64,000 nt of DNA from Chitinophagales bacterium (GTDB lineage: Bacteria > Bacteroidota > Bacteroidia > Chitinophagales > UBA8649): assembly GCA_049610685.1 (NCBI GenBank), contig JBMYZU010000010.1, positions 2,460-66,459 on the forward strand, in the 5' to 3' direction. The notes beneath the pieces were generated by a model that saw only the letters and a program-made list of their open reading frames with translations, was not told the DNA's origin and made no database searches. Below, piece after piece: positions 1,871-47,948 of the stretch. Position 1 is the first letter of the stretch. The number at the start of each line of letters is the position of its first letter. Made by a program: the position numbers and the translations under genes.

Positions 1871-2872
1871 ATGCGAATTGCCATTATTCGATTAAGTTCA
1901 ATGGGAGATATCTTGCTCTCCAGCCCTATAGTCCTAGCATTGCATAAAAGCTATCCCAAGGCGACCATTGACTTTTACACCAAAGACACCATGCACTCTA
2001 TCATAGGAGAGCACCCAGGAATATCGAAGGTATATCTATGGAATTGCAAGGCGAAAGATGGCCTCAATGATATGATAAATCAAATAGAAAATCGGCAATA
2101 TGATCATATCGTTGACCTACAAAACAACTGGCGTTCAAGACGTCTTAGACGGATGTTAAGCGGCAAACTACACCGTGTAAACAAAGAGGGATTTCGGCGT
2201 AGAATATTGGTTCATTTTGGATGGAATATATTACGAAAAAGACACGTAATAAGACGCTATTATTCGTGTATATCTGATTTTTGCCCGTCACCATTACAAG
2301 AGAGAATAGAGCTTCCTGATACACAATCAACACCGTTGACCCACCTCCTGAGCCCGAGAACATCCACAGGCAACTTTATTGTATGGGCCATCGGAGCGAA
2401 GCACTTCACGAAGCGACTACCCAATTCAATCATTGTAAAAACAATTCAATCCATTCCTCATAGCGTTATTCTTATCGGAGATTCAACAGATTGCGAAAAT
2501 GCTCAGCGCATTCTTGCCCATTTACCCAAAGGACATAATGTCATCGATCTTACCGGAAAAACCTCTTTTTTAGAATCTGTAGAATTAATCAAAAGAGCGC
2601 GACTAACCCTAGCGAATGATTCACTTATGATGCATGTTGCCGCAGGATCAGGAAAACCACTAATTAGTTTTTGGGGAAGCACTACGCCTGAGTTAGGTTT
2701 CAGACCATTAAGTAATCATGCCACACTTATTTCCGCTCCAAAAAAGCTTTCATGTCAACCATGTCATACCGCAGGACGATCATCCTGTCCAAAAAAACAC
2801 TTCAACTGTATGATGACCATAAAGCCTGAGATCATCGTTCAAGCGATCGACGATGCACTGAAGGCGCGATAG
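1871..2872 (+). CDS. glycosyltransferase family 9 protein (LPS heptosyltransferase-like)
   Basis: The N-terminus MRIAIIRLSSMGDILLSSPIV is typical of GT9. The C-terminal half has a GDS..D and MHVAAG.GKP pattern. Confidence 0.75.
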   Translation: MRIAIIRLSSMGDILLSSPIVLALHKSYPKATIDFYTKDTMHSIIGEHPGISKVYLWNCKAKDGLNDMINQIENRQYDHIVDLQNNWRSRRLRRMLSGKLHRVNKEGFRRRILVHFGWNILRKRHVIRRYYSCISDFCPSPLQERIELPDTQSTPLTHLLSPRTSTGNFIVWAIGAKHFTKRLPNSIIVKTIQSIPHSVILIGDSTDCENAQRILAHLPKGHNVIDLTGKTSFLESVELIKRARLTLANDSLMMHVAAGSGKPLISFWGSTTPELGFRPLSNHATLISAPKKLSCQPCHTAGRSSCPKKHFNCMMTIKPEIIVQAIDDALKAR

Positions 2873-3452
2873 ATTCTAAGGCAAGCTCAATGTAATAGTT
2901 GTCTTCGTGGGTGAGATCATAGATTTCTTTCAAATCATATCCGTAGCGCTTGGCCACAAGATTAAAGCCCCATACTTTGATATTAGGATTGTAGTGCTTA
3001 AGCAATTCAGCCATAGAAACACCCGTTTGCCTACTAATCAACTTAACCAGCAATTTACCCTCACTAATGCGCAATGCTTTAAGTTCCTTCTCAAAGCGTT
3101 TGTATAAGTCTTTTTTACGGTCACGCTTATACCGACGGAAATGCCGCTTATTCAGGGCCTCTTCCTTTACCTCTAAGTCGAATAACACTTCTTGTGCAAT
3201 GAGGAAGTAAGGCCAAATCTTCTCCAGCTTGCGCTTGGTCTCAAGGTATTTAAGCCGATCGTATGGATTATCAATAATCGGTATAGTGGGCAGAACTAAA
3301 TAATCAATTGAATCACCATCAAAGACGTCGTTGTATAGATCATGAAACTCCTCGCTATAATTATCATCACTTTGAGCCAAGGAATAAAAGGGTATACCAA
3401 CAAGAAAAAAAGCAATGATTTTAAGGCGCGTAATGTTGATGGAGTGCTTCAT
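2832..3452 (-). CDS. DUF4294-like secreted protein
   Basis: Signal peptide (..FYSLAQS). The segment LRISEGKLLVKLISRQTGVSMAELLKHYN...GFNLVAKRYGYDLKEIYD resembles Bacteroidota DUF4294 from memory. Its 3' end overlaps the GT9 gene by 41 nt. Confidence 0.6.
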   Translation of the reverse strand: MKHSINITRLKIIAFFLVGIPFYSLAQSDDNYSEEFHDLYNDVFDGDSIDYLVLPTIPIIDNPYDRLKYLETKRKLEKIWPYFLIAQEVLFDLEVKEEALNKRHFRRYKRDRKKDLYKRFEKELKALRISEGKLLVKLISRQTGVSMAELLKHYNPNIKVWGFNLVAKRYGYDLKEIYDLTHEDNYYIELALESIAPSVHRRSLER

Positions 3453-3561
3453 AAATGACTATATTAACGCTAAATTGCAGTCAATAGGTATTGAGTTCTT
3501 CATAATTCAATGTCGAACCAAAAAAATGAATTGTATTTTTACAAAATTGAAAAAAAATCAA

Positions 3562-4620
3562 ATGCTCAAGAAATCTCTCTTCCTATTTGTTTTAGCGAGT
3601 TGTCTTTTTTCTCTGAAGACTCTGCTCGCCCAGGACATTCATTACTCTCAATATTATGCATCTCCCCTGACGCTCAACCCAGCGCTTACTGGAAAATTTA
3701 ACGGCTACTATCGGGCGACAGCCATTTATCGAGACCAATGGCGCAACGTCAATGGTGGTGAAGCCGTGTTTATGACACCATCCGCTTCAGTAGACTTTTC
3801 CTTGCTCAAGGATAAACTCTCTACCGATGCCCTCGGTGTAGGAGCTCACGTCGTATATGACAAAGATGGAATCTTTGAACGATATCAAGCTGGAGTTAAC
3901 TTGGCCTACCATAAAGGGTTGGACCGAGGCAATAAATACCACCTAGCCTTCGGTTTACAAGGGGTGTATAATAGCAGCAGTCTAGATGTCAACTCAGTCT
4001 TCGCCGATCAAATAGGATTAGACGGAACCATTGCCGACATGAGTATGGAGCAAACTAATGGTCTTGCATCAAGTACGAATAGCTTTTTTGATGTTAATGC
4101 AGGATTGCTTTTTGATGCTCAAATCAATTCAAACATTACGATGTACCTCGGTGGGTCTTTCTTGCACATCGGACGTCCCCTAAATGACTTTATCGCCACA
4201 GGTAATGATGAAGACAATGCAATACCTAGAAGATATGTTACTCATGGTGGAATGGATATGCAGTTCAATCGTTTCTACGTTCTTCCAGGTTTCTTATATC
4301 AGGTTAATGATATCGGAAACCAAGAAGTAAACTTTGGTTCAACCTTTGGTTACGACTTTGCGAAGGATCCATCGAAAGACTGGATCGGATTCCTTGGTGC
4401 GTGGTATCGTCTTGGTGATGCCGCAATTATCAAAGGCGGACTGGAGTACAACCGTATTCGTTTGTCAGCAGCATACGATTTGACCTTATCTCAGTTAAGA
4501 GATGATACAAATATTGCCTTGGGTAAAATACCTACAGCTTTTGAAATTTCTATGAGTTACTTCGGATTCAACAACCCTAAAGTTCCTCAAGATCGATATC
4601 TATTTAACCCAAGATTCTAA
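3562..4620 (+). CDS. PorP/SprF family type IX secretion system membrane protein (copy 1)
   Basis: Internal ATG at 3562 gives MLKKSLFLFVLASCLFSLKTLLAQDIHYSQYYASPLTLNPALTG, a signal peptide plus the PorP/SprF signature. The C-terminus ends in F. The ORF-track start at 3415 would overlap the divergent gene. Confidence 0.85.
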   Translation: MLKKSLFLFVLASCLFSLKTLLAQDIHYSQYYASPLTLNPALTGKFNGYYRATAIYRDQWRNVNGGEAVFMTPSASVDFSLLKDKLSTDALGVGAHVVYDKDGIFERYQAGVNLAYHKGLDRGNKYHLAFGLQGVYNSSSLDVNSVFADQIGLDGTIADMSMEQTNGLASSTNSFFDVNAGLLFDAQINSNITMYLGGSFLHIGRPLNDFIATGNDEDNAIPRRYVTHGGMDMQFNRFYVLPGFLYQVNDIGNQEVNFGSTFGYDFAKDPSKDWIGFLGAWYRLGDAAIIKGGLEYNRIRLSAAYDLTLSQLRDDTNIALGKIPTAFEISMSYFGFNNPKVPQDRYLFNPRF

Positions 4621-33604: not shown

Positions 33605-34171
33605 ATGAAAAAATATCTCGTATTATTCCTTGCTACTACCCTACTTACCAATGCTCTTCGCGCTCAAAATAACTTTACCGTTGATCTAGAAAAAAGCAAA
33701 GTGCAATGGTTGGCCAAAAAAGTAGGAGGGCAGCATGATGGATTAGTGGATATAAAGAAGGCCTACATTATGCTCAATGGTCAAGGTGCAGTAAGTCAAG
33801 CTGATATTGTTATGGACATGACGAGTATAACCGTTGAAGATTTAACAGGTGGGGCGAAAAACTCACTAACCAATCACCTAAAAGATCCTGACTTTTTTAA
33901 CACACAAGACTATCCAGAAGCTTCCTTTACAGTAAAAGAAGGGCAGGGCAAATCTGGAAAGGTTGATGGCCTCTTAACTATAAAGGATATATCTAAAGAG
34001 TACACCCTTCAATACAAAGTGCAGGATGGCACAATCAAAGGAACATTGATTATCGACCGGACAGACTTCGATATCATGTATAAATCCAAGTCGATACTGG
34101 ATGCCAAGGCTGTGGCTGACGGTTTTATCTATGATGAGTTTACAATAACATTTACCCTCATCGAAAAATAA
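33605..34171 (+). CDS. YceI family periplasmic protein
   Basis: Signal peptide, then VDLEKSKVQWLAKKVGGQHDG... and the L.I.D....Y pattern typical of YceI. Confidence 0.85.
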   Translation: MKKYLVLFLATTLLTNALRAQNNFTVDLEKSKVQWLAKKVGGQHDGLVDIKKAYIMLNGQGAVSQADIVMDMTSITVEDLTGGAKNSLTNHLKDPDFFNTQDYPEASFTVKEGQGKSGKVDGLLTIKDISKEYTLQYKVQDGTIKGTLIIDRTDFDIMYKSKSILDAKAVADGFIYDEFTITFTLIEK

Positions 34172-34186
34172 TCGTCTATTGACCAA

Positions 34187-34480
34187 TCAACCTTCTAGAC
34201 GATATCCAAGGGAACGAATAGAATGAAGTTTAATCGAGTCGTCGAGTTTCAGGTGTTTCCTTAATCTATTGATATATACATCCATACTGCGACCAGCGAA
34301 ATAATCCGTTTTTGACCAGATCTTTTGCAATACTACTTCTCGCGAAACGATCTCATTTTTATGCTCTAATAAAAACTCAAATAAAGCAGCTTCTCTTGGA
34401 GTGAGTTTTATCTCCTGATCATTAATAAGCAAGGTTCGTTGCTCTCTAAAGTAGGTTGATTTTCCTATTGGGAGAGACAC
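34187..34480 (-). CDS. winged-helix (OmpR/PhoB-type trans_reg_C) DNA-binding domain protein with no receiver domain; possibly the 3' part of a disrupted gene
   Basis: LTPREAALFEFLLEHKNEIVSREVVLQKIW...GRSMDVYINRLRKHL...IHSIRSLGYRLEG. The only available start is GTG at 34480. Confidence 0.65.
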   Translation of the reverse strand: MSLPIGKSTYFREQRTLLINDQEIKLTPREAALFEFLLEHKNEIVSREVVLQKIWSKTDYFAGRSMDVYINRLRKHLKLDDSIKLHSIRSLGYRLEG

Positions 34481-34673: not shown

Positions 34674-35345
34674 ATGAAAATGCAAGCCTACCAAATACTA
34701 AATATTCATGACAGTGCACTAAATGAATGTTTAGCTGAAATTCGGGACAAAGACATCCAAATAAATCGTCCGCGATTCAGAGAAAACCTGCGACAAAGCG
34801 GAATCTATTGTGGATATGAATTGAGTAAATCTCTAGCATACCAAAATCAAAAGGTTCACACTGTACTTGGAGATGCTCACATTAACCTAATGTCAGAACA
34901 ACCCATATTAATTCCCATTTTGCGTGCGGCACTTCCCTTTTATGAGGGAATACAGTCAGTCTTTCCTCATGCAGAAAGTGGATTTATTGGCGCGATGAGA
35001 AAAACTACCAGCAAAACCTCTTTTGAAATTGCCTTGGATTATCATGCCCTACCCAATCTTAATGATCGAGAAGTTGTCTTGATCGACCCGATGCTTGCTA
35101 CAGGGAAATCTATCGTTAAAACAGCCCAGGTGTTAACTAAGATGTACCCAAAAATCAAACGATTTTATATAGTGGCCTTGATTGCTTCCAAGCAAGGTCT
35201 TAAGTATGTCGAACATCATTTAACACACGATCACCATATTCTATCAGCGGCATTGGACGACGAGTTAAATGCCAAGAGTTACATCGTACCAGGACTTGGT
35301 GATGCAGGGGATTTAGCCTTTGGAGAAAAGCAAGACATGGCTTAA
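34674..35345 (+). CDS. upp: uracil phosphoribosyltransferase
   Basis: IDPMLATGKS PRPP loop and YIVPGLGDAGDLAFG C-terminal motif. The ATG at 34674 is preferred over TTG at 34653. Confidence 0.9.
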   Translation: MKMQAYQILNIHDSALNECLAEIRDKDIQINRPRFRENLRQSGIYCGYELSKSLAYQNQKVHTVLGDAHINLMSEQPILIPILRAALPFYEGIQSVFPHAESGFIGAMRKTTSKTSFEIALDYHALPNLNDREVVLIDPMLATGKSIVKTAQVLTKMYPKIKRFYIVALIASKQGLKYVEHHLTHDHHILSAALDDELNAKSYIVPGLGDAGDLAFGEKQDMA

Positions 35346-35373
35346 CTTAAGAGGAATACTAATTCAATTCCTA

Positions 35374-36735
35374 ATGAAGCCCCATCTATTGCTCATACTT
35401 CTTCTTCCTGCACTCCTTACATCATGTATAGAGGATAAAAAAAATAGCACTCTGAAAGCACAGGATCCAGCGTCAGATGCTCAATCATCAGAGGATAAAG
35501 AGATACGATATCATCAAGATGTATCCTATCCAATGCGAGCGATTGAGGATAAAAGCGGTCTTCGCCACCGACGAGACCTACCAACAGAGGAGTTAGGCGC
35601 ATTAGACTCTCTTGATGTAAAGCAACTACAAATGGCCCTGTACAATGCCAAGGAGGGCGACACCATCTTCTTAGAGAAAGGGGTATACCATCTTTCCAAC
35701 GAGTTAATCATAAGCGAAGTAAACGGCATAACGCTTCAAGGGAAGGGAATGGGAAGAACCATTATCAACTTTGCCGATCAACAGGCTGGAGGGCAAGGCA
35801 TCAATATAAACAAAGCAAACAATATCACTCTGTGCGATTTCTCCGTATATGATGCCCATGGTGATGGCATTAAAACCAAAGGATGTAATGATATGGTCAT
35901 GCGAAACCTTGAAGTCCTATGGACTAAGGGGCCTCATCCTAAAAATGGTGGCTATGGTCTATATCCTGTCGAAAGTCAAGGAATTCTTGTAGAGCAATGT
36001 ATGGTTGCCGGCGCATCCGATGCAGGCATTTATGTTGGGCAATCGTTAGACGTGGTCGTAAAAAATTGCTACGTATACCATAACGTTGCGGGTATAGAAA
36101 TTGAAAATTGCACACGATCCCTAGTGTATGATAATGTAGCAGAAGATAATACAGGAGGTATCCTGGTATTCAACCTACCCGATCTTCCTGTGAATCCTGA
36201 CGGGGAGTTCTGTCAAGTCTACGACAATATTGTAGTACATAACAACCACCTCAATTTTGCTCCGGAAGGCAATATGGTAGCCATCGTGGCTCCTGGTTCT
36301 GGCATTGTTCTCTTAGCCGCCAAGTCCTGCGAAGTATTCAACAATGAAATCCGAGATAACAAAACCATGGGTATCGCTGTAGCGAGTTACTTCGTGCACA
36401 ATCCAAATGAAGAAACAACTGCTCAATTCAGTCCTTATTCATCAAATATTAGCATACATGATAATCAGTATTCCTGTAATCCTTCCTTTTATGCAGATAA
36501 CTCAACTCCCTTTGGATTACTTGTATTGACCAGCGGCAATGGTGGACGAGGTTTCGACTTGCTATCCGACGGCGTCTTTGCTGAGGAGGGCATGTTTTGT
36601 GTTCAAGAAGATTCAAGTGATTTCTCCTTTATGATGTTGAATAATGGTGACTTTGAAAGTCCATTAATCCGAGATGCTGGATCGCTTGGGAATTGTCAAA
36701 AAATGAGTTTCCCCGAAGTCTACCAAGTCCATTGA
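35374..36735 (+). CDS. parallel beta-helix repeat lipoprotein (NosD/CASH-like fold)
   Basis: Internal ATG gives MKPHLLLILLLPALLTSC (lipobox). Repeated beta-helix turns: ITLCDFSVYDAHGDGIKT, GASDAGIYVGQS, HNVAGIEIENC, DNTGGILVFN. Confidence 0.8.
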   Translation: MKPHLLLILLLPALLTSCIEDKKNSTLKAQDPASDAQSSEDKEIRYHQDVSYPMRAIEDKSGLRHRRDLPTEELGALDSLDVKQLQMALYNAKEGDTIFLEKGVYHLSNELIISEVNGITLQGKGMGRTIINFADQQAGGQGININKANNITLCDFSVYDAHGDGIKTKGCNDMVMRNLEVLWTKGPHPKNGGYGLYPVESQGILVEQCMVAGASDAGIYVGQSLDVVVKNCYVYHNVAGIEIENCTRSLVYDNVAEDNTGGILVFNLPDLPVNPDGEFCQVYDNIVVHNNHLNFAPEGNMVAIVAPGSGIVLLAAKSCEVFNNEIRDNKTMGIAVASYFVHNPNEETTAQFSPYSSNISIHDNQYSCNPSFYADNSTPFGLLVLTSGNGGRGFDLLSDGVFAEEGMFCVQEDSSDFSFMMLNNGDFESPLIRDAGSLGNCQKMSFPEVYQVH

Positions 36736-36771
36736 TAATAAGGTATTCCATCCCAACGTATAACACTGCAG

Positions 36772-37965
36772 ATGTTTTCTTCAAATAAATGTTTGATATA
36801 TAGTCTGATAGCTATTACGCTGGGGCTTATGACGTGCAATAAAGGAGGAGTTAATGAGAAGAATAATTCGCATAAGCATCAAGAAGCTCAACCATCTTCT
36901 GATATATTCAAAAGCCATATTGAATTTTTAGGGATTAATCCTGCCGATTTTGGAAGCAATACCATTGTTCTACCACAAGATGACTCTCCTTTTCCCAAAC
37001 TCAGTAATTATGGATTCTTCAAGGGTCCTGTGCACTACTTGATTCCAAGCGATGGCGTCCTACCCTATTCATTAAACTCCGAACTATTCTCTGACTATGC
37101 CTATAAAGCACGGTTTGTTTGGATGCCTCAAGGAAGTGCTGCAAAATATCGAAAGGATGAAGTCCTAGATTTCCCCTTAGGCACCGTCTTAATCAAGAAC
37201 TTTTACTATCCTATCGATATGCGAAATCCCCATGGCGAACGACGCTTGATTGAGACGAGACTCCTGGTGAATACCCAGTCAGGGTGGAAAAACTATCCTT
37301 ATCTATGGAATGAAGATCAAACCGAGGCAGACTACCATCCGTTCGGCGAGTTTACCAAGGTTTCTTGGATTGATATCCAAGGAGAAGAACAGCATGTAAA
37401 CTATATGCAACCGCAACAAGGTCAGTGCATGTCATGTCATATTGTAGACGACAAAGTAATGCCTATCGGCCCCAAGGTTCGCAACCTCAATGGAGTGTTT
37501 GACTACGGAGAAGAAGGCAAGCAAAATCAACTTGTCTATTGGCAGCAAATGGGGTATCTCGAAGGATTTAACCCTAATGAGCCTCAACCCCGTAATGCGG
37601 TTTGGAGTAATCCATCAGAAGACCTAGACGATCGAGCTAGAGCCTACCTCGATATAAACTGTGGCCACTGCCATAACCCTAAGGGGCCTGGCAACACTAC
37701 CGGATTCTATCTTGACGCATTAACCGCTGATCCCAAAGAATTGGGTGTATGCAAAGTTCCTGTTGCAGCAGGAAGAGGTAGCGGTAATCTGAGGTATGAC
37801 ATTGTCCCAGGAAATCCCTCAGCATCGATTGTACATTATCGTATGGCTTCAGAGGAAATTGATGTGATGATGCCTGAAATTGGACGATCAAAAGTCCACT
37901 ATGAAGGATTGGAGTTGATCGCCTCTTGGATAGCCTCTATGGAGGAGGGATCTTGTAATGAGTAG
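36772..37965 (+). CDS. diheme c-type cytochrome lipoprotein (SO_2930-family-like)
   Basis: Lipobox LGLMTC. Two CxxCH heme motifs: CMSCH (nt 37426-37440) and CGHCH (nt 37660-37674). Confidence 0.8.
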   Translation: MFSSNKCLIYSLIAITLGLMTCNKGGVNEKNNSHKHQEAQPSSDIFKSHIEFLGINPADFGSNTIVLPQDDSPFPKLSNYGFFKGPVHYLIPSDGVLPYSLNSELFSDYAYKARFVWMPQGSAAKYRKDEVLDFPLGTVLIKNFYYPIDMRNPHGERRLIETRLLVNTQSGWKNYPYLWNEDQTEADYHPFGEFTKVSWIDIQGEEQHVNYMQPQQGQCMSCHIVDDKVMPIGPKVRNLNGVFDYGEEGKQNQLVYWQQMGYLEGFNPNEPQPRNAVWSNPSEDLDDRARAYLDINCGHCHNPKGPGNTTGFYLDALTADPKELGVCKVPVAAGRGSGNLRYDIVPGNPSASIVHYRMASEEIDVMMPEIGRSKVHYEGLELIASWIASMEEGSCNE

Positions 37966-40262
37966 TCTGTGGACGATTTGGGAAACGCGCAGTGAATGGT
38001 CATGCCTTCTTCGTAGACCGAGGTATACCATATTCGGCCTTGATGACGATCCATAATCCGCTTGCAGATAGAAAGCCCAATCCCTTGCCCTTGGTAACTT
38101 TTATCGCTGTGTAGTCGCTGAAATACGCCAAAGATATCTTTGTTTGAGTCCTCTGGAATACCAATACCATTATCCTTCACATGGATAATAACCTCATCAG
38201 CCGTTACCTCGCCATAGACATGAACCTCTGAATCATCCTTTTTGCCCGAGAATTTAATCGCATTACCGATAATATTTTGCAAAAGCTGACGGATCATGGT
38301 GTTATCTCCGGTCACATTAGGAAGGGTGTCAACGATGAGATTGGTTTCATTGCGCTCAATCGACATGGTCAGATCCGATTGGACAGCACGCACAACGTCA
38401 TTTAGATTAATCTCGGTCAAGACAAGCTCATTTTTACTTGTATTGGAATATTGCAATAAACTATCAATCAAATCATACATACGCTTATTGCCTTCCTTAA
38501 TCATCTTCACATAGCGCTTACCAGGATGAGAGTCCTCTAAACTCGCTTCAAGAACCTGAGATAGGCCGGCAACAGTTCGCACAGGCTCCTTTAAGTCATG
38601 AGAAATGATGTAAGCGTATTGCTCAAGCTCTTGGTTACGCTCCACAAAATCTTGTAATGTATCTCTTTGCTTGGACAAGGCTACAACCTTTTCATCCAAT
38701 GCAAGTTTCAATTGCTGGCGTTCAGTAACATTTTGAACCACTGCGAGGAAGGTATCCTCATTGATGTAGGAAATCCTGCAGAATAAATAGAATGTTTCTC
38801 CATCAATATCTCTCGACATGGTCCATTCGGTAACATTCTTTGATTCTTTGCATCGCGCAATACCGTCAAGAATTAAAGCTACATTCTCTTCAGTATGAAT
38901 CTCACGTATATTTTTACCCAAAATGTCCATGTTGGGAACATATCCATCTTCATATTTTCTTTCCCGAATATCTAAGTAGTCTCCATTCGCATTAACCATA
39001 AGAACAACATCCGGAATTGCACTTATTATTGCGCGGTTGTATGACTCGGCTTTGTTTAAATTTTCTATATACTCTTTATCGCTGGTGATAATAGTAGATA
39101 CCGTGAAGATGTTTTCTACCTCTCCATGCATATCTCGAGAGAATACTCGAAATCGAGAACGCACCCATTGAGATTGACCTTGCTTATCAATATGTCGTAA
39201 TTCAAGCTCGAGGTAAGCATCATCTTCCAAAGCCGCTAGTGAGTGTAGACCTTCCTTGATGAGATCTCTATTTTCATCATCAAAATACAAGGACATATCC
39301 CCAACATTCCATTCACCTTCGGAATACCCCATAAAGGTTCTACCGGAAAAGTTCGAGTAAATGTTCTCACGTGATTGGAGGTTCCAGACAAAAATGTAAT
39401 CGGGAATTGTATGAGAAATCTTTTCAATAAACTGCCCATGTACTTGGTTTTCAAAATGAGCATATCGTTGATTAGTTATATCACGCATCGTACAAATACA
39501 GGTTACCAAACCTTCTTTATCACGATTCATAATACTCGTTCGCTCATGAAACCAGCGATAGCTTCCGTCTTTACATTGAATTTGGTATTCCGCATCAATG
39601 AATTCGCCTTTCTTACCATATTGTAGGAAGTCCGTGTCATTTTCCCAGTCTCCTTGAATAGAATCCACTTGAATTCGATTGGATAGAAACTGCATTTCTG
39701 ACACATCATCAATATCTTCTCTATCGTATCCAAGATGATTCAGAAAAGAGCGGTTTTCATAGACTATACGCTGCTGACGCATATCAAAAACATAGAGAAA
39801 ATCCGTCATGGTAGACAGGAGGTTTCCAATCACTTCCTGCTCGACGGTAGACTTTGCAATCGAATCAATATCTTCCTTTATGGCAACCATAACCATGATT
39901 CCCTCGGCTTGACCAAACTCATCTTTGTATAAAGAAAGACTCAATGTAGAATCTATGACGACCTGTTGTTCAGATCTTATGTGCCGAGTGAAATGAAAAC
40001 GCTTCTTACTTCCTTGACGCAGCTCTCCTATGGCTTCCTTGAGTGCATACAGATCATCCCGAAGCACAAAATGCCTGAGCGGACGCCCTTCAATACCTTC
40101 TTTAGATGTGCCTATAATATCGCAGAAAGCCTCGTTTACATCGTAGATTATAAAGTCAAATCCAAGAATAAAAGCAGGGAAGTCATGAATGCTCAATGCG
40201 ACATCACGACGAGGATCTTTCAATGGCCGGAAGGCCCTTAATATGGAGCTTTTTTGCTGCAT
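37899..40262 (-). CDS. cytoplasmic multi-PAS sensor histidine kinase
   Basis: Several PAS-like segments, H-box ISHDLKEPVRT and HATPase_c (NAIKF..., DNGIGI, GQGIGLSICK). No transmembrane segment. ATG at 40262 (the ORF track uses GTG at 40280). Confidence 0.85.
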   Translation of the reverse strand: MQQKSSILRAFRPLKDPRRDVALSIHDFPAFILGFDFIIYDVNEAFCDIIGTSKEGIEGRPLRHFVLRDDLYALKEAIGELRQGSKKRFHFTRHIRSEQQVVIDSTLSLSLYKDEFGQAEGIMVMVAIKEDIDSIAKSTVEQEVIGNLLSTMTDFLYVFDMRQQRIVYENRSFLNHLGYDREDIDDVSEMQFLSNRIQVDSIQGDWENDTDFLQYGKKGEFIDAEYQIQCKDGSYRWFHERTSIMNRDKEGLVTCICTMRDITNQRYAHFENQVHGQFIEKISHTIPDYIFVWNLQSRENIYSNFSGRTFMGYSEGEWNVGDMSLYFDDENRDLIKEGLHSLAALEDDAYLELELRHIDKQGQSQWVRSRFRVFSRDMHGEVENIFTVSTIITSDKEYIENLNKAESYNRAIISAIPDVVLMVNANGDYLDIRERKYEDGYVPNMDILGKNIREIHTEENVALILDGIARCKESKNVTEWTMSRDIDGETFYLFCRISYINEDTFLAVVQNVTERQQLKLALDEKVVALSKQRDTLQDFVERNQELEQYAYIISHDLKEPVRTVAGLSQVLEASLEDSHPGKRYVKMIKEGNKRMYDLIDSLLQYSNTSKNELVLTEINLNDVVRAVQSDLTMSIERNETNLIVDTLPNVTGDNTMIRQLLQNIIGNAIKFSGKKDDSEVHVYGEVTADEVIIHVKDNGIGIPEDSNKDIFGVFQRLHSDKSYQGQGIGLSICKRIMDRHQGRIWYTSVYEEGMTIHCAFPKSSTDYSLQDPSSIEAIQEAINSNPS

Positions 40263-40356
40263 TTTATGGTATCTAAGCACCTAACGTGCTGAAAATCTTC
40301 GAACTATATATACGAAGACCTTAGGAAGATGTTACGTGGATAACTTCTTAAATTCC

Positions 40357-44383: not shown

Positions 44384-47300
44384 CTACTCTACCGATATCA
44401 TCCTTCGATAGATGGTATTCTCTGACCGAAGGACAACAAGGTAATAACCTGTTTCTAAAGAGGATGTATGGAGGAATCCTTGACCTTCCTGACAAGAACT
44501 CTTTAGGACCACAGCACCCTTCATATCCAACACATCAACCGAATAGGATTCAAGTGAAGGGGTTGCCAATGAAATGTTATCTCCTTGACGCACTGGGTTG
44601 GGATAAACATGGAGAACATCTTGCCCTAAATCAACGAGATTCGTAGGCGGTGGTGTTGTCGTATCCCTTGCATCAAAGTTGATGTTATCGATATAAATAT
44701 TATTTCCATAACCCGTTTTTCCCCGGAAGATGAGCATGACTTCTTCATTCCCGTGATAGGCGGAAAGATCAACACTTTCTCTGCGCCATTCATCCGATAG
44801 AGGGATAAATGCCTCTGTGGTATCTGCTCTCGTAGCCAAGTCGCTACCCCCCTTCCAATACAAGGTGTCATAACTCACTCCACAATCCAAGGAGACAAGC
44901 ACACCCAACGTATCGGAGTAATTCACAGCATACCGAGCATAGGCCACATCAAATGATAAGGGCTGCAATTGAGTTGATGAAAGGTCCACAAAGGTGACTA
45001 AGTCATCCATCTCCCCTGCCTGATAATAACCAAAGCCATCGAAAAACATTGAACGGCTGCTCATTCCAAACCCACCAGCATCATCAGTTAAGGCCCAACT
45101 TATGCGATTATCAGGGTTGTCGATTCGAAACTCTCTAGGTAGAGTTGTCGATTCAAAAGTCTCTTCAACGAGCGGCTCTGGAGGCACTGAGGTGATCACA
45201 GTATACAGGGTATCTCGAGCGACAATACCACCTGCATCGGTAACCGTAAGATATATGGGATGACGACCATCCTGACTATATACGACGTCCTGCTCAATGG
45301 ACGTAGACGTCGCCGGACTCCCACCAGGAAATTCCCATAATCGACTTGCCCCAGCATGGCGTAACGCCGACAAGTCAACCACATGGGCTACACGTGAAGT
45401 GCTATCGCAGGTTAACGCAATAAAGCTGTCGGTCTCAAGACCGATTCGTGCAATGGGTTGAAAGTTTGTTTCATAAAGCGGACTTTCCCAAATCCCTTTA
45501 CCATATGATGCAATGCGAATCTTTCCATCTCGATAAAAAGGAATCGCCTTATTGACATTACACTGCACAGGTAGACCGTCGCCACAATCCTCCCAGTCAG
45601 CCATGGAGTTATTGCGATAGAAAATAGTTTTATTAGAGGCGTAGTATATCCCCCCATCCGTTCCATAGGCTAAATTGATCCAACGTGCCCTTTCGTTTTG
45701 AATGGTTGGCGTGGTTAAATTTGACCATGTATTTCCCCCATCCAAGGATTTGTACACCCGGTTATTGGAAGATTCAAAAGCGATATACAATATGTCGCTA
45801 TCTATCGGGTCAACTTGAAGAAGCATTTTTCTATGTCCAGTTGCATCACCGGGAAGTGCAGTTTGCAACCAAGTGAGTCCGCCATCTTCTGTTTTCCAGA
45901 GCTTGCTTGAACTTGGACTTGATGACTGTTGGCAGGCGTAGATCACCTCCGGATTAGACCATGACCATTCAATGTACGTTATCAAATCATCCTCATTGCT
46001 TCCAAAAGTTTGCAAACGTTGAAAGGATTGACCAAAGTCTTCTGTTAGCCATAGACTATTATCGAGACCCGTAATGGCATGAGAATAGAAGTTCGGGTGA
46101 AAGGCTAGTTCAGAAGACTCTACTGTCCAATAACTCTCATTAGGATTAATGCCGAAGGTAAACGACCCCACTGGGTCGCCTATAGTAGCAGGAATAAAAC
46201 GACCTAAACCCGGTGTACTGTAAACCCTGCGATTTTCGCCTGGATTTATATATCCAGAAGCGGGTTCACCACCCACAAGCACTAAGTGATTACCCTGGCC
46301 CCAACGATCAAAACTGGCGTGCACACCACAGTGATACAATCCACCAACTGTGACATCTTCATTCCAACCCTGGCCAAAGCCCCAATAATCGCTGCTGTGC
46401 ATTCCATTGGTACGTACCTCAAAATGGGATGTCGTAGAATAGAAATCATCGGACCAATACACGCACCCATCCGTAGTTACCCAGGCATCATTTCCATTCA
46501 CTCGAAAGTCCTGCATATCTACTTTTATATCACCAAGTGATCCGGCTCCATATCCACCAAGAAACTCAAAGGTCAATCCAGCATCATAGGATTTGTAGAG
46601 ACTTGTGCCTCCAATGAGTACTTCGTCAGGATTGCTTTGTGAGGCTAAAACTGCACAGTTATAAAACCCTTGATGGTGTCCATTATTGGACGATCCATTG
46701 GCTAAATTCGGATGCGTATCCGAGTAAGGACCTCCCGCAGGTCCATTCGGCAAGGTCCACGTTAGCCCTCCATCATCGGAACGATATAATCCTATATGTC
46801 CTTCATCTCCTGCCTTAGATTCTCCAATGAGGTAAGCATAAATACGGTCAGGATTTGCACTTGTAAGTGCCAGCCTTGCTCCGCGATCATTAACATCAGG
46901 ATCGGTCGAAGCATGCCAACCATTGTTTAACAAAGAATACGTTAGTCCCCCATCTAATGAACGATAAAACTCGGCAATATTCAGCCCCGGATTATGCTTG
47001 GTTAGGTAAACAATATCATCGTTGACGGTATGGAGTTTGACATCATAGGTTCTTTCGTTAAAGACATTGGTCCATTGTATTCCCCCATCTGTACTTCGAT
47101 AAAACCCATTTTGGCAGGCTAAAAAGACAATTGACGGATCGGACGGTTTAAATTGAATTTCATGACATTCGCCTGTATTTAATCCTTGAGTATACCAATT
47201 AACCCCACCATCAAGGCTGTAGAATATGGAGTTTCCTGAGCCAATAAGTACGGTGTCAGGACGGCTGGGATGAATGGCTATTGCGGTCACCGCGCCATTC

Positions 47301-47854
47301 AAAGGATCCAATAAACTTCGATTTACCCAAGTTAAGCCACGATCAGTCGACTTGTAGACTTCGCCTGGCTCCGTGCCAGCATACAGGATATCAGGATGTG
47401 AAGTCGATTGAGCAAATCCCCTGACATTGTTTTGACGAGGCGAGCGAGTAGAATCCGCAATAAAGGTCTCAATAGGACCTAGTAAACTCCAATTTCCCGA
47501 ACGACTACCCTGCTCAATCAATTCATTTCGTTGGGCTAATCGTGCATTGAGGCTTGGATATACTATCGAACCATCTACTTGGACAAAATCTTGAATTCGC
47601 TTTCTCCAATGCTTATAAAACTGCGTATGCGTAGTCTTTTCAAAATCATTGGAGCGATAGTATGCCTTGTATGCTGCATCAACTTCCCACACATTAGGAT
47701 CTTCAGCATACATCATTTGAGCCCAAAGAGGAAGTCGACCAACCTCCGCATCGGATGGCATAGAGAAGAAGGTCTGACCATGAAGAGAAACAGTTAGGAA
47801 ACTCAGCACAAACGCGCCCAAAAAATTTATACGTATCGCTTTACTCAAGAACAT
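44384..47854 (-). CDS. large T9SS-secreted protein: Asp-box (BNR) beta-propeller region + PKD-like + jelly-roll-like domain + type A sorting domain
   Basis: Signal peptide from the internal ATG (MFLSKAIRINFLGAFVLSFLTVSLHGQ). Nine SxDxGxTW-type boxes, for example STDRGLTW, SLDGGVNW, STDGGIQW, SDDGGLTW, TEDGGLTW and SLDGGNTW. C-terminal VYPNPVRQGDNISL...GYYLVVL. Confidence 0.8.
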   Translation of the reverse strand: MFLSKAIRINFLGAFVLSFLTVSLHGQTFFSMPSDAEVGRLPLWAQMMYAEDPNVWEVDAAYKAYYRSNDFEKTTHTQFYKHWRKRIQDFVQVDGSIVYPSLNARLAQRNELIEQGSRSGNWSLLGPIETFIADSTRSPRQNNVRGFAQSTSHPDILYAGTEPGEVYKSTDRGLTWVNRSLLDPLNGAVTAIAIHPSRPDTVLIGSGNSIFYSLDGGVNWYTQGLNTGECHEIQFKPSDPSIVFLACQNGFYRSTDGGIQWTNVFNERTYDVKLHTVNDDIVYLTKHNPGLNIAEFYRSLDGGLTYSLLNNGWHASTDPDVNDRGARLALTSANPDRIYAYLIGESKAGDEGHIGLYRSDDGGLTWTLPNGPAGGPYSDTHPNLANGSSNNGHHQGFYNCAVLASQSNPDEVLIGGTSLYKSYDAGLTFEFLGGYGAGSLGDIKVDMQDFRVNGNDAWVTTDGCVYWSDDFYSTTSHFEVRTNGMHSSDYWGFGQGWNEDVTVGGLYHCGVHASFDRWGQGNHLVLVGGEPASGYINPGENRRVYSTPGLGRFIPATIGDPVGSFTFGINPNESYWTVESSELAFHPNFYSHAITGLDNSLWLTEDFGQSFQRLQTFGSNEDDLITYIEWSWSNPEVIYACQQSSSPSSSKLWKTEDGGLTWLQTALPGDATGHRKMLLQVDPIDSDILYIAFESSNNRVYKSLDGGNTWSNLTTPTIQNERARWINLAYGTDGGIYYASNKTIFYRNNSMADWEDCGDGLPVQCNVNKAIPFYRDGKIRIASYGKGIWESPLYETNFQPIARIGLETDSFIALTCDSTSRVAHVVDLSALRHAGASRLWEFPGGSPATSTSIEQDVVYSQDGRHPIYLTVTDAGGIVARDTLYTVITSVPPEPLVEETFESTTLPREFRIDNPDNRISWALTDDAGGFGMSSRSMFFDGFGYYQAGEMDDLVTFVDLSSTQLQPLSFDVAYARYAVNYSDTLGVLVSLDCGVSYDTLYWKGGSDLATRADTTEAFIPLSDEWRRESVDLSAYHGNEEVMLIFRGKTGYGNNIYIDNINFDARDTTTPPPTNLVDLGQDVLHVYPNPVRQGDNISLATPSLESYSVDVLDMKGAVVLKSSCQEGQGFLHTSSLETGYYLVVLRSENTIYRRMISVE

Positions 47855-47948
47855 AGTTCTAATGTAAAAGAAAATGAAAATATCTATCGGATAACTCATA
47901 TAATCTAACCCAGTTAATTACATTGCAAGAACTTCAAAATCTATACAT

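Follow-up and report, generated by a model that had tools for sequence, protein, structure and literature searches.

The window, by which we mean the whole stretch of DNA analysed here, comprises 64,000 nucleotides (nt) of contig JBMYZU010000010.1 (assembly GCA_049610685.1, positions 2,460 to 66,459, forward strand) from a Chitinophagales bacterium. Two adjacent genes within it encode a parallel beta-helix lipoprotein (gene A) and a diheme c-type cytochrome lipoprotein (gene B). The two genes form a known, widespread and catalogued family pair of uncharacterised chemistry, of which the window copy is an ordinary member, and their products almost certainly work as one periplasmic redox complex. 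The analysis is new in that it weighs in favour of a fixed complex, sets aside the analogies with NosD and MauG, describes both proteins down to single residues and finds B to be a portable module, one also fused to sugar dehydrogenases of the pyrroloquinoline quinone (PQQ) type. The pair has the following features.

35374-36735, plus strand: gene A, TIGR03805 parallel beta-helix lipoprotein, 453 amino acids (profile match).
35374-35427, plus strand: signal peptide and lipobox of A, MKPHLLLILLLPALLTS-C18 (sequence reading).
35863-36255, plus strand: invariant constellation of A on successive helix turns, residues 164-294 (194 A modules, at least 95-99% conserved).
36736-36771, plus strand: spacer between A and B, 36 nt (sequence reading).
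36772-37965, plus strand: gene B, TIGR03806 / SO2930-family diheme c-type cytochrome lipoprotein, 397 amino acids (profile match).
36772-36837, plus strand: signal peptide and lipobox of B, MFSSNKCLIYSLIAITLGLMT-C (…ITLGLMT-C22) (sequence reading).
36994-37416, plus strand: conserved beta-rich N-terminal domain of B, residues ~75-215 (strands of the model and invariants of 325 sequences).
37426-37440, plus strand: attachment motif of heme 1, C219-M-S-C222-H223, invariant, directly after the last strand of the beta domain.
37660-37674, plus strand: attachment motif of heme 2, C297-G-H299-C300-H301, invariant including H299 within the motif.
37870-37872, plus strand: Met367 (MMPE motif), invariant in 325 sequences, probable sixth ligand of heme 2.

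The open reading frame (ORF) of A is open from 35320 to 36735 on the plus strand. We prefer as its start the ATG at 35374, which gives MKPHLLLILLLPALLTSC, because a start at the alternative TTG (35320) would run into the end of upp and lengthen the N-terminus, adding 18 residues before the signal peptide. B begins MFSSNKCLIYSLIAITLGLMTC, and a Cys closing the signal peptide, here Cys22, is common among Bacteroidota homologues of B. A preliminary description of the locus had placed here two same-strand lipoprotein genes 36 nt apart, the second with two CxxCH motifs; both statements were confirmed, with the lipobox cysteines at positions 18 and 22. A and B are single-copy within the window, and the GC content of their locus is typical for it. 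The 3' end of B overlaps a convergent PAS histidine-kinase ORF (37899-40280, minus strand) by 67 nt (37899-37965). This is an unusually long convergent overlap, and the true stop of the kinase, or the last ~20 tail codons, may be non-functional read-through.

Profile searches assigned both proteins to catalogued families. A matches TIGR03805 (beta_helix_1) over residues 85-371 with 337.1 bits against a cutoff of 141.5, and B matches TIGR03806 (SO2930 family diheme c-type cytochrome) over residues 75-390 with 379.7 bits against a cutoff of 313.3. A is secreted by virtue of its lipoprotein signal, and the TIGR03806 gene follows it at 36 nt, which is the arrangement described for TIGR03805. With both scores above the cutoffs, the pairing with an SO_2930-type cytochrome that the preliminary description had given proved correct. 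The Pfam matches of A are Beta_helix, NosD (51 bits) and a pectate-lyase-like family. B scores 18.8 bits against Pfam Cytochrom_C (PF00034), below the gathering threshold of 21.3, and some of its homologues carry precomputed PF00034 or PF07635 matches. No Pfam match to CCP_MauG (PF03150) was found in B at E <= 0.01, the propeller of the PQQ-type glucose/sorbosone dehydrogenases (GSDH, PF07995) is absent from A and B of the window, and no sequence relatives of either protein were found in the PDB.

Neither protein had been credited with a function in the preliminary description, and the literature searched holds no biochemical function for the family, only passing mentions, and nothing on a combination of beta-helix and cytochrome. 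Papers on Shewanella class SO2930 and SO2931 as diheme, outer-membrane or extracellular lipoprotein cytochromes, and SO2931 was deleted in the omc-all strain; they give this classification only, with no specific function or phenotype. It should be noted that these papers name SO2931 itself a diheme lipoprotein, whereas CxxCH occurs in 0 of the 67 unfused A homologues examined here. The role they assume for SO2931, that of an outer-surface conduit for extracellular electron transfer, draws on this listing and on the removal of the gene in the omc-all strain. We consider such a role extremely unlikely for the pair, which occurs mainly in obligately aerobic heterotrophs without Mtr systems; moreover, two hemes are too few to span a membrane, and no porin partner is conserved.

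The conservation of the pair was assessed by a pattern scan of one genome per species, which yielded 80 loci encoding relatives of B in Bacteroidota, Acidobacteriota (Bryobacterales), Planctomycetota, Alpha-, Beta- and Gammaproteobacteria (including SAR86), Marinimicrobia and Binatia. In 69 of the 80 loci, which cover at least six phyla, A immediately precedes B on the same strand; three of the 11 remaining loci are too short upstream to be judged, so that the proportion among assessable loci is 69/77. The distance from the stop of A to the start of B is mostly -4 to +50 nt; one unrelated gene separates the two in three loci, and A flanks B on both sides in one. The view of the preliminary description that the pair is widespread therefore holds, and the pairing, whose co-conservation it had proposed as a check, is real, as these counts and the natural fusions described below indicate. 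The B family is large: an exhaustive profile search returned 8,994, 6,624 and 3,108 cluster representatives (clusters at 50% identity) at E <= 1e-3, 1e-10 and 1e-30, respectively.

When the neighbouring ORFs were clustered in search of a third conserved gene, no other family was found in more than 9 of the 80 loci, and hence the module consists of two genes only. A k-mer search for regulatory motifs common to the upstream regions of 67 A genes gave nothing above background. In a single locus, from Lewinellaceae, a gene with a Tat signal encoding a xylose-isomerase-like TIM-barrel protein (PF01261) sits between A and B (L011:6984-7913); PF01261 includes keto-sugar lyases and isomerases, and the insertion may be coincidence.

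The two modules are also found in one polypeptide. A and B form one ORF in a Pirellulales and a Binatia locus (L079 and L080), and a search with the L079 protein gave more than 110 full-length fusion clusters of ~770 amino acids, mostly from Planctomycetota. The AlphaFold2 model of the fusion, built with 64 aligned fusions, covers 774 residues with a predicted local distance difference test score (pLDDT) of 90.2, a predicted template modelling score (pTM) of 0.89 and a well-ordered linker; with the pTM as the sole measure, the model indicates a defined relative arrangement of the A and B modules. A 1:1 fusion that has lasted so long speaks for a stoichiometric complex and against an enzyme with a transient client. 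A periplasmic, membrane-tethered redox module, as the preliminary description had suggested, is the natural reading of the pair.

Protein A is conserved in an unusual set of residues. Invariant in 194 A modules are K167, W183, N191, Y194, Y197, D216, Y220, Q223, N237, E242, E244 and N245, together with N259, N285, N290, N294, N324, N364 and D399, while D164 is nearly invariant at just under 95%. None of these modules share a conserved Cys, His or Met, and no His or Arg is invariant anywhere in A. The motifs GDGIK, GYGLYPV, DAGIYVGQS, NVAGIEIEN and NTGGILVF occur one per helix turn, and this recurrence indicates that some of the invariant residues form a structural Asn ladder and that the others line one face of the helix as a strip of Asp, Glu, Lys, Tyr and Gln.

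Beta-helix modules also occur in tandem, as A-A-B and A-A proteins (P0147, 1318 amino acids; P0237, 889 amino acids) and in the order A-B-A (L051:1533-5243). All 22 invariant residues of the A family are kept in every tandem or A-B-A copy. Since every copy keeps them, the constellation is intrinsic to A, that is, a ligand, metal or catalytic site, and not merely the face on which B docks.

A Foldseek search with the model of a fusion homologue placed A nearest to the A-module of the mannuronan C5-epimerase AlgE4 (2e-9), the PL31 alginate lyase 6kfn (TM 0.68) and PL6 alginate lyases; RbmB lyase, GH28 enzymes and phage tailspikes also appeared. The A profile matched the phi29 tailspike gp12 at 2e-5, and D216, E242 and E244 of A align with the acidic residues D197, E228 and D230 of gp12, which makes them candidate equivalents of its catalytic residues. 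The catalytic residues of AlgE are Tyr149, Asp152, His154 and Asp178 (PMC7385640). The segment Y194-G-L-Y197-P-V199 of A has the same spacing as Tyr149/Asp152/His154, and if the two are in register, Tyr and Val would stand in place of the epimerase Asp and His throughout the A family. Neither the full AlgE set nor the Lys/Arg pair of PL6 is present in A, which has only a Tyr at AlgE-like spacing; lacking any invariant His or Arg, A does not qualify as a canonical epimerase or PL6 lyase.

These data also bear on the proposal, made in the preliminary description by analogy with NosD, that the pair assembles or repairs the metallocentre of another enzyme. NosD, the component of the NosDFY system for maturation of N2O reductase, resembles A in being a periplasmic right-handed beta-helix with CASH-type repeats and a Pfam NosD match, and A reaches E 3e-10 with the NosD model TIGR04247. 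That match, however, amounts to 39.1 bits where the cutoff is 300, the 50 leading fold matches of A do not include NosD, and A has no conserved Cys, His or Met. No nosZ, nosF, nosY or nosL gene lies near the window pair and no third gene is conserved beside it; where NosD has an ABC partner, NosL and NosZ, A has a diheme cytochrome. The analogy did not survive these comparisons, and the chance that the pair is an accessory system of this kind is very slight.

Protein B of the window contains exactly two CxxCH motifs, which are invariant in 325 homologues, and exactly two are present in 80/80 genomic homologues. The AlphaFold2 model of window B (pLDDT 86, pTM 0.82) runs from the lipid anchor through a disordered tether and an eight-stranded beta domain (about residues 96-212) to the first CxxCH and then to a helical class-I-like domain (residues 285-389), in which the second CxxCH and M367 fall. 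In the same 325 sequences, the beta domain is invariant at Y99, D108, K112, R114, K142, E161-T162-R163, W172, Y177 and W179. Besides the defining residues of the CxxCH motifs, M367 and H299 are the only invariant Met or His, and H376 is not invariant. From this pattern, heme 2 is probably ligated by His301 and Met367; for heme 1 we infer His223, with either H299 as the distal ligand or no sixth ligand.

A Foldseek search of B against the PDB gave no match better than E 0.18, and the only matches of a profile search, to c551/c552 at heme 1, were marginal (E 0.27-1.4). B is thus without a solved relative and is not a diheme protein of the CCP/MauG type.

The strongest functional clue came from the other partners of B. 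A clade of ~1,000-residue proteins consists of a GSDH propeller, a Cys-rich helical linker of ~290 residues and a complete diheme B; a dedicated search gave 15 clusters of this type, diverging down to 49% identity (P0378, P0391-P0404), and the locus of one such gene (L081:3576-6617) has no beta-helix gene. In an extended subfamily (P0309, P0259, P0356, P0377, P0301, P0329), B is lengthened by a further domain of class I cytochrome c and by a region of ~200 residues at the C-terminus, and the gene for P0309 (L082:5001-7112) has no A gene adjacent. The gene upstream of it was considered as a divergent A and rejected, being a CAAX-protease-like membrane protein.

Two of the eight B genes without A directly precede a GSDH gene (L004 and L005). 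At these loci (L004:7872-10880 and L005:7794-10888), the orphan B is followed by a GSDH-family gene whose product is sorted by the type IX secretion system (T9SS) and by a second T9SS-sorted protein. The core invariants of B are kept in orphans, GSDH fusions and extended variants alike; K328 is lost only in the GSDH fusions, and the extended subfamily alone has other residues in place of K112 and K142. Judged by these architectures, B looks like a portable module that has been combined time and again with catalytic domains of the periplasmic dehydrogenase type and with additional domains for electron transfer. Such portability supports an electron-transfer role for B, probably an electron-accepting one.

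The same conservation can be read differently, with B itself as the enzyme. Heme 1, on the beta-sandwich, would then be catalytic in the manner of TsdA, cytochrome P460 or a peroxidase and would act on a small inorganic or organic substrate, with heme 2 as a relay and with A or GSDH only binding, positioning or tethering. D108, E161-T162-R163, W172, W179 and H299 are indeed kept in orphans, GSDH fusions and extended variants, orphan B genes exist, and with only M367 and H299 invariant outside CxxCH, heme 1 could be five-coordinate. There is also a non-significant Foldseek likeness of B to cytochrome P460 (105 columns, root-mean-square deviation 5.8), which at E 1.1 and probability 0.13 we treated as noise. 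This reading, which is unlikely but deserves to be kept in view, is hard to square with the 20-odd invariant polar residues of A, which persist in tandem copies as a passive tether would not require, and B shows no verifiable Cys, Lys or Tyr signature of a heme ligand.

B might instead be a maturase that oxidises Tyr or Trp of A into a protein-derived cofactor, after which A would act alone. Pairs of a diheme protein and a periplasmic or surface partner have precedent in MauG with MADH, MbnH with MbnP and CorB with CorA, and A has an invariant Trp, three invariant Tyr and no recognisable cofactor site. Like B, the CCP/MauG/MbnH family has two c hemes, a periplasmic location and an adjoining partner gene. 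B, however, has no sequence or fold similarity to this family, being a beta-sandwich followed by a class-I-like domain, with neither a CCP/MauG Pfam match nor a Foldseek match to peroxidase or MauG structures. A phylum-wide, persistent 1:1 covalent fusion would be unusual for a catalytic maturase, and B is also fused to PQQ-type propellers and extra electron-transfer domains. We regard maturation of A by B as quite improbable.

The reading that we favour, tentatively and at somewhat less than an even chance, is that A and B form a two-subunit, lipid-anchored, cytochrome-c-linked periplasmic oxidoreductase acting on an anionic glycan or a hard-metal ligand. A would be the substrate-binding or catalytic subunit, its site formed by the invariant Asp/Glu/Lys/Tyr/Gln ladder on successive turns of the beta-helix, the place at which epimerases, lyases and tailspike enzymes of the same fold keep their active sites. 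The ligand would be an anionic glycan or sugar acid, favoured on account of the fold neighbours and the GSDH analogy; as an alternative, carboxylate and tyrosinate groups would hold a hard metal ion. Electrons would pass from the substrate, perhaps by way of the invariant Tyr/Trp residues, to heme 1, then to heme 2 and the respiratory chain; we infer both the ligand of A and the route by which electrons leave it. In such a complex, B would be a portable two-heme electron wire, with heme 1 (His223, possibly His299) on the conserved beta-sandwich and heme 2 (His301/Met367) in the class-I-like domain passing electrons to the pool of soluble cytochrome c and oxidase. Together, the two subunits would thus make up a dehydrogenase linked to cytochrome c and devoid of flavin, PQQ, Mo and Cu motifs. 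The other suggestion of the preliminary description, in which the beta-helix holds a substrate that is oxidised via the cytochrome, fits the new evidence best and stands as a proposal.

As to the ligand, a carboxylate- and tyrosinate-bound Fe or Mn ion in A is a serious alternative. Taken further, the cluster of D216, E242, E244, Y194, Y197 and Y220 would bind Fe or Mn, free or chelated by polyuronate, and B would oxidise or reduce the metal, with the activity of a ferroxidase, ferric reductase or Mn oxidase, in the service of its uptake or detoxification. The invariants of A are of hard-ligand types, with no soft ligands among them. Ca2+ sites of PL6 lyases have an E-x-E motif on a beta-helix turn; A has such a motif as well, and PL6 enzymes are among its fold matches. 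The pair occurs in iron-limited aquatic heterotrophs (SAR86, Marinimicrobia, Flavobacteriia-type), and Foldseek gave non-significant matches of B to the P19/FetP iron-transport proteins, which at E 0.6 or worse were treated as noise. On the other side, no transporter, TonB-dependent receptor or Fur-type context is conserved, no upstream motif is shared, and the GSDH fusions point to sugars, not metals. Redox of metals as the function of the whole pair therefore appears rather improbable to us.

Several observations weigh against the proposed oxidoreductase. Eight of the 77 assessable B genes have no adjacent A. A offers no site that could be named for a redox cofactor: Cys, His and Met are all unconserved in it, and it has neither a flavin nor a PQQ motif. 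To our knowledge there is no beta-helix dehydrogenase, so that the chemistry would be unprecedented. The beta domain of B is conserved far beyond the needs of a simple electron carrier, so that catalysis may reside in B. The location of heme 1 with respect to the groove of A and the sixth ligands of both hemes are putative, and the direction of electron flow is likewise a proposal. In the literature searched, no experimental phenotype was found for any member of the family.

In its boldest form, the proposal would describe a new type of oxidoreductase that works with neither flavin nor PQQ, Mo or Cu. Its c-type heme, docked on a beta-helix groove of carbohydrate type, would oxidise a bound polyanionic glycan or sugar acid, and the oxidation may run through a radical relay of Tyr/Trp residues. 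This is a long shot; if true, it would amount to a "polysaccharide dehydrogenase or oxidative lyase" feeding the electrons of extracellular polymers directly into aerobic respiration.

The B family is present in major aquatic and soil heterotrophs (Bacteroidota, Planctomycetota, Acidobacteriota, SAR86, Marinimicrobia), and the pair is an unusually tractable "known unknown", a self-contained two-protein module with a confident predicted complex. Identification of its substrate would annotate thousands of genes and could reveal periplasmic oxidation of glycans or metals that feeds the respiratory chain. The window copy itself adds nothing unusual, and its value is that of a family representative.

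The neighbours of the pair in the window are housekeeping genes, namely upp, YceI, a PAS histidine kinase, fadD, lysS, lgt and mtaB, and a scan of the locus for promoters and terminators gave results at chance level only. The gene for the secreted YceI-like protein (33605-34171, plus strand) lies 1.2 kb upstream of the pair and is not kept beside it in the 80 loci; YceI domains accompany extracellular cytochrome domains in some polysaccharide-oxidising systems. About 0.9 kb upstream on the opposite strand, an ORF of 97 amino acids with a GTG start (34187-34480, minus strand) encodes only an OmpR-type winged-helix domain (Trans_reg_C, E 1.7e-19) without a receiver domain, and may be a stand-alone regulator or the remnant of a response regulator.

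The sole other CxxCH within an ORF of the window is found at 1871-2872 (plus strand) in a protein of the GT9 heptosyltransferase family. It was considered as a second cytochrome and rejected, the protein being a GT9 glycosyltransferase with a chance CxxCH. A T9SS-sorted protein of 1171 amino acids with BNR/Sortilin-type repeats and a weak glycosylhydrolase-family match (44384-47899, minus strand) and PorP/SprF at 3415-4620 mark the window as part of a Bacteroidota chromosome.

Among known systems, the alginate-active beta-helix enzymes and phi29 gp12 are closest to A in fold or profile and, like A, have acidic residues and Tyr on consecutive turns. The right-handed beta-helix fold of the pectate-lyase type is common to A and the AlgE/PL6 enzymes; the alginate-active enzymes, unlike A, have no cytochrome partner.

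The nearest parallel for the coupling is offered by the quinohemoprotein-type dehydrogenases, in which a catalytic PQQ/GSDH propeller is coupled 1:1 to a c-type cytochrome, as a subunit or fused, just as B is fused to GSDH. The window pair differs in that the partner is a beta-helix without a PQQ-type site, and where the cytochrome of these enzymes is a simple class I domain, B carries two hemes and an additional conserved beta-sandwich.

The TIGR03805/TIGR03806 pair itself, represented by SO_2931/SO_2930 of Shewanella oneidensis and by the HNE_0200 type of Hyphomonas, has the same gene order, the same secretion signals and two CxxCH motifs, and occasional fusion of A and B is seen in this family as well. 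Nothing essential distinguishes the window pair from it, and we regard the pair described here as its Bacteroidota lipoprotein version.

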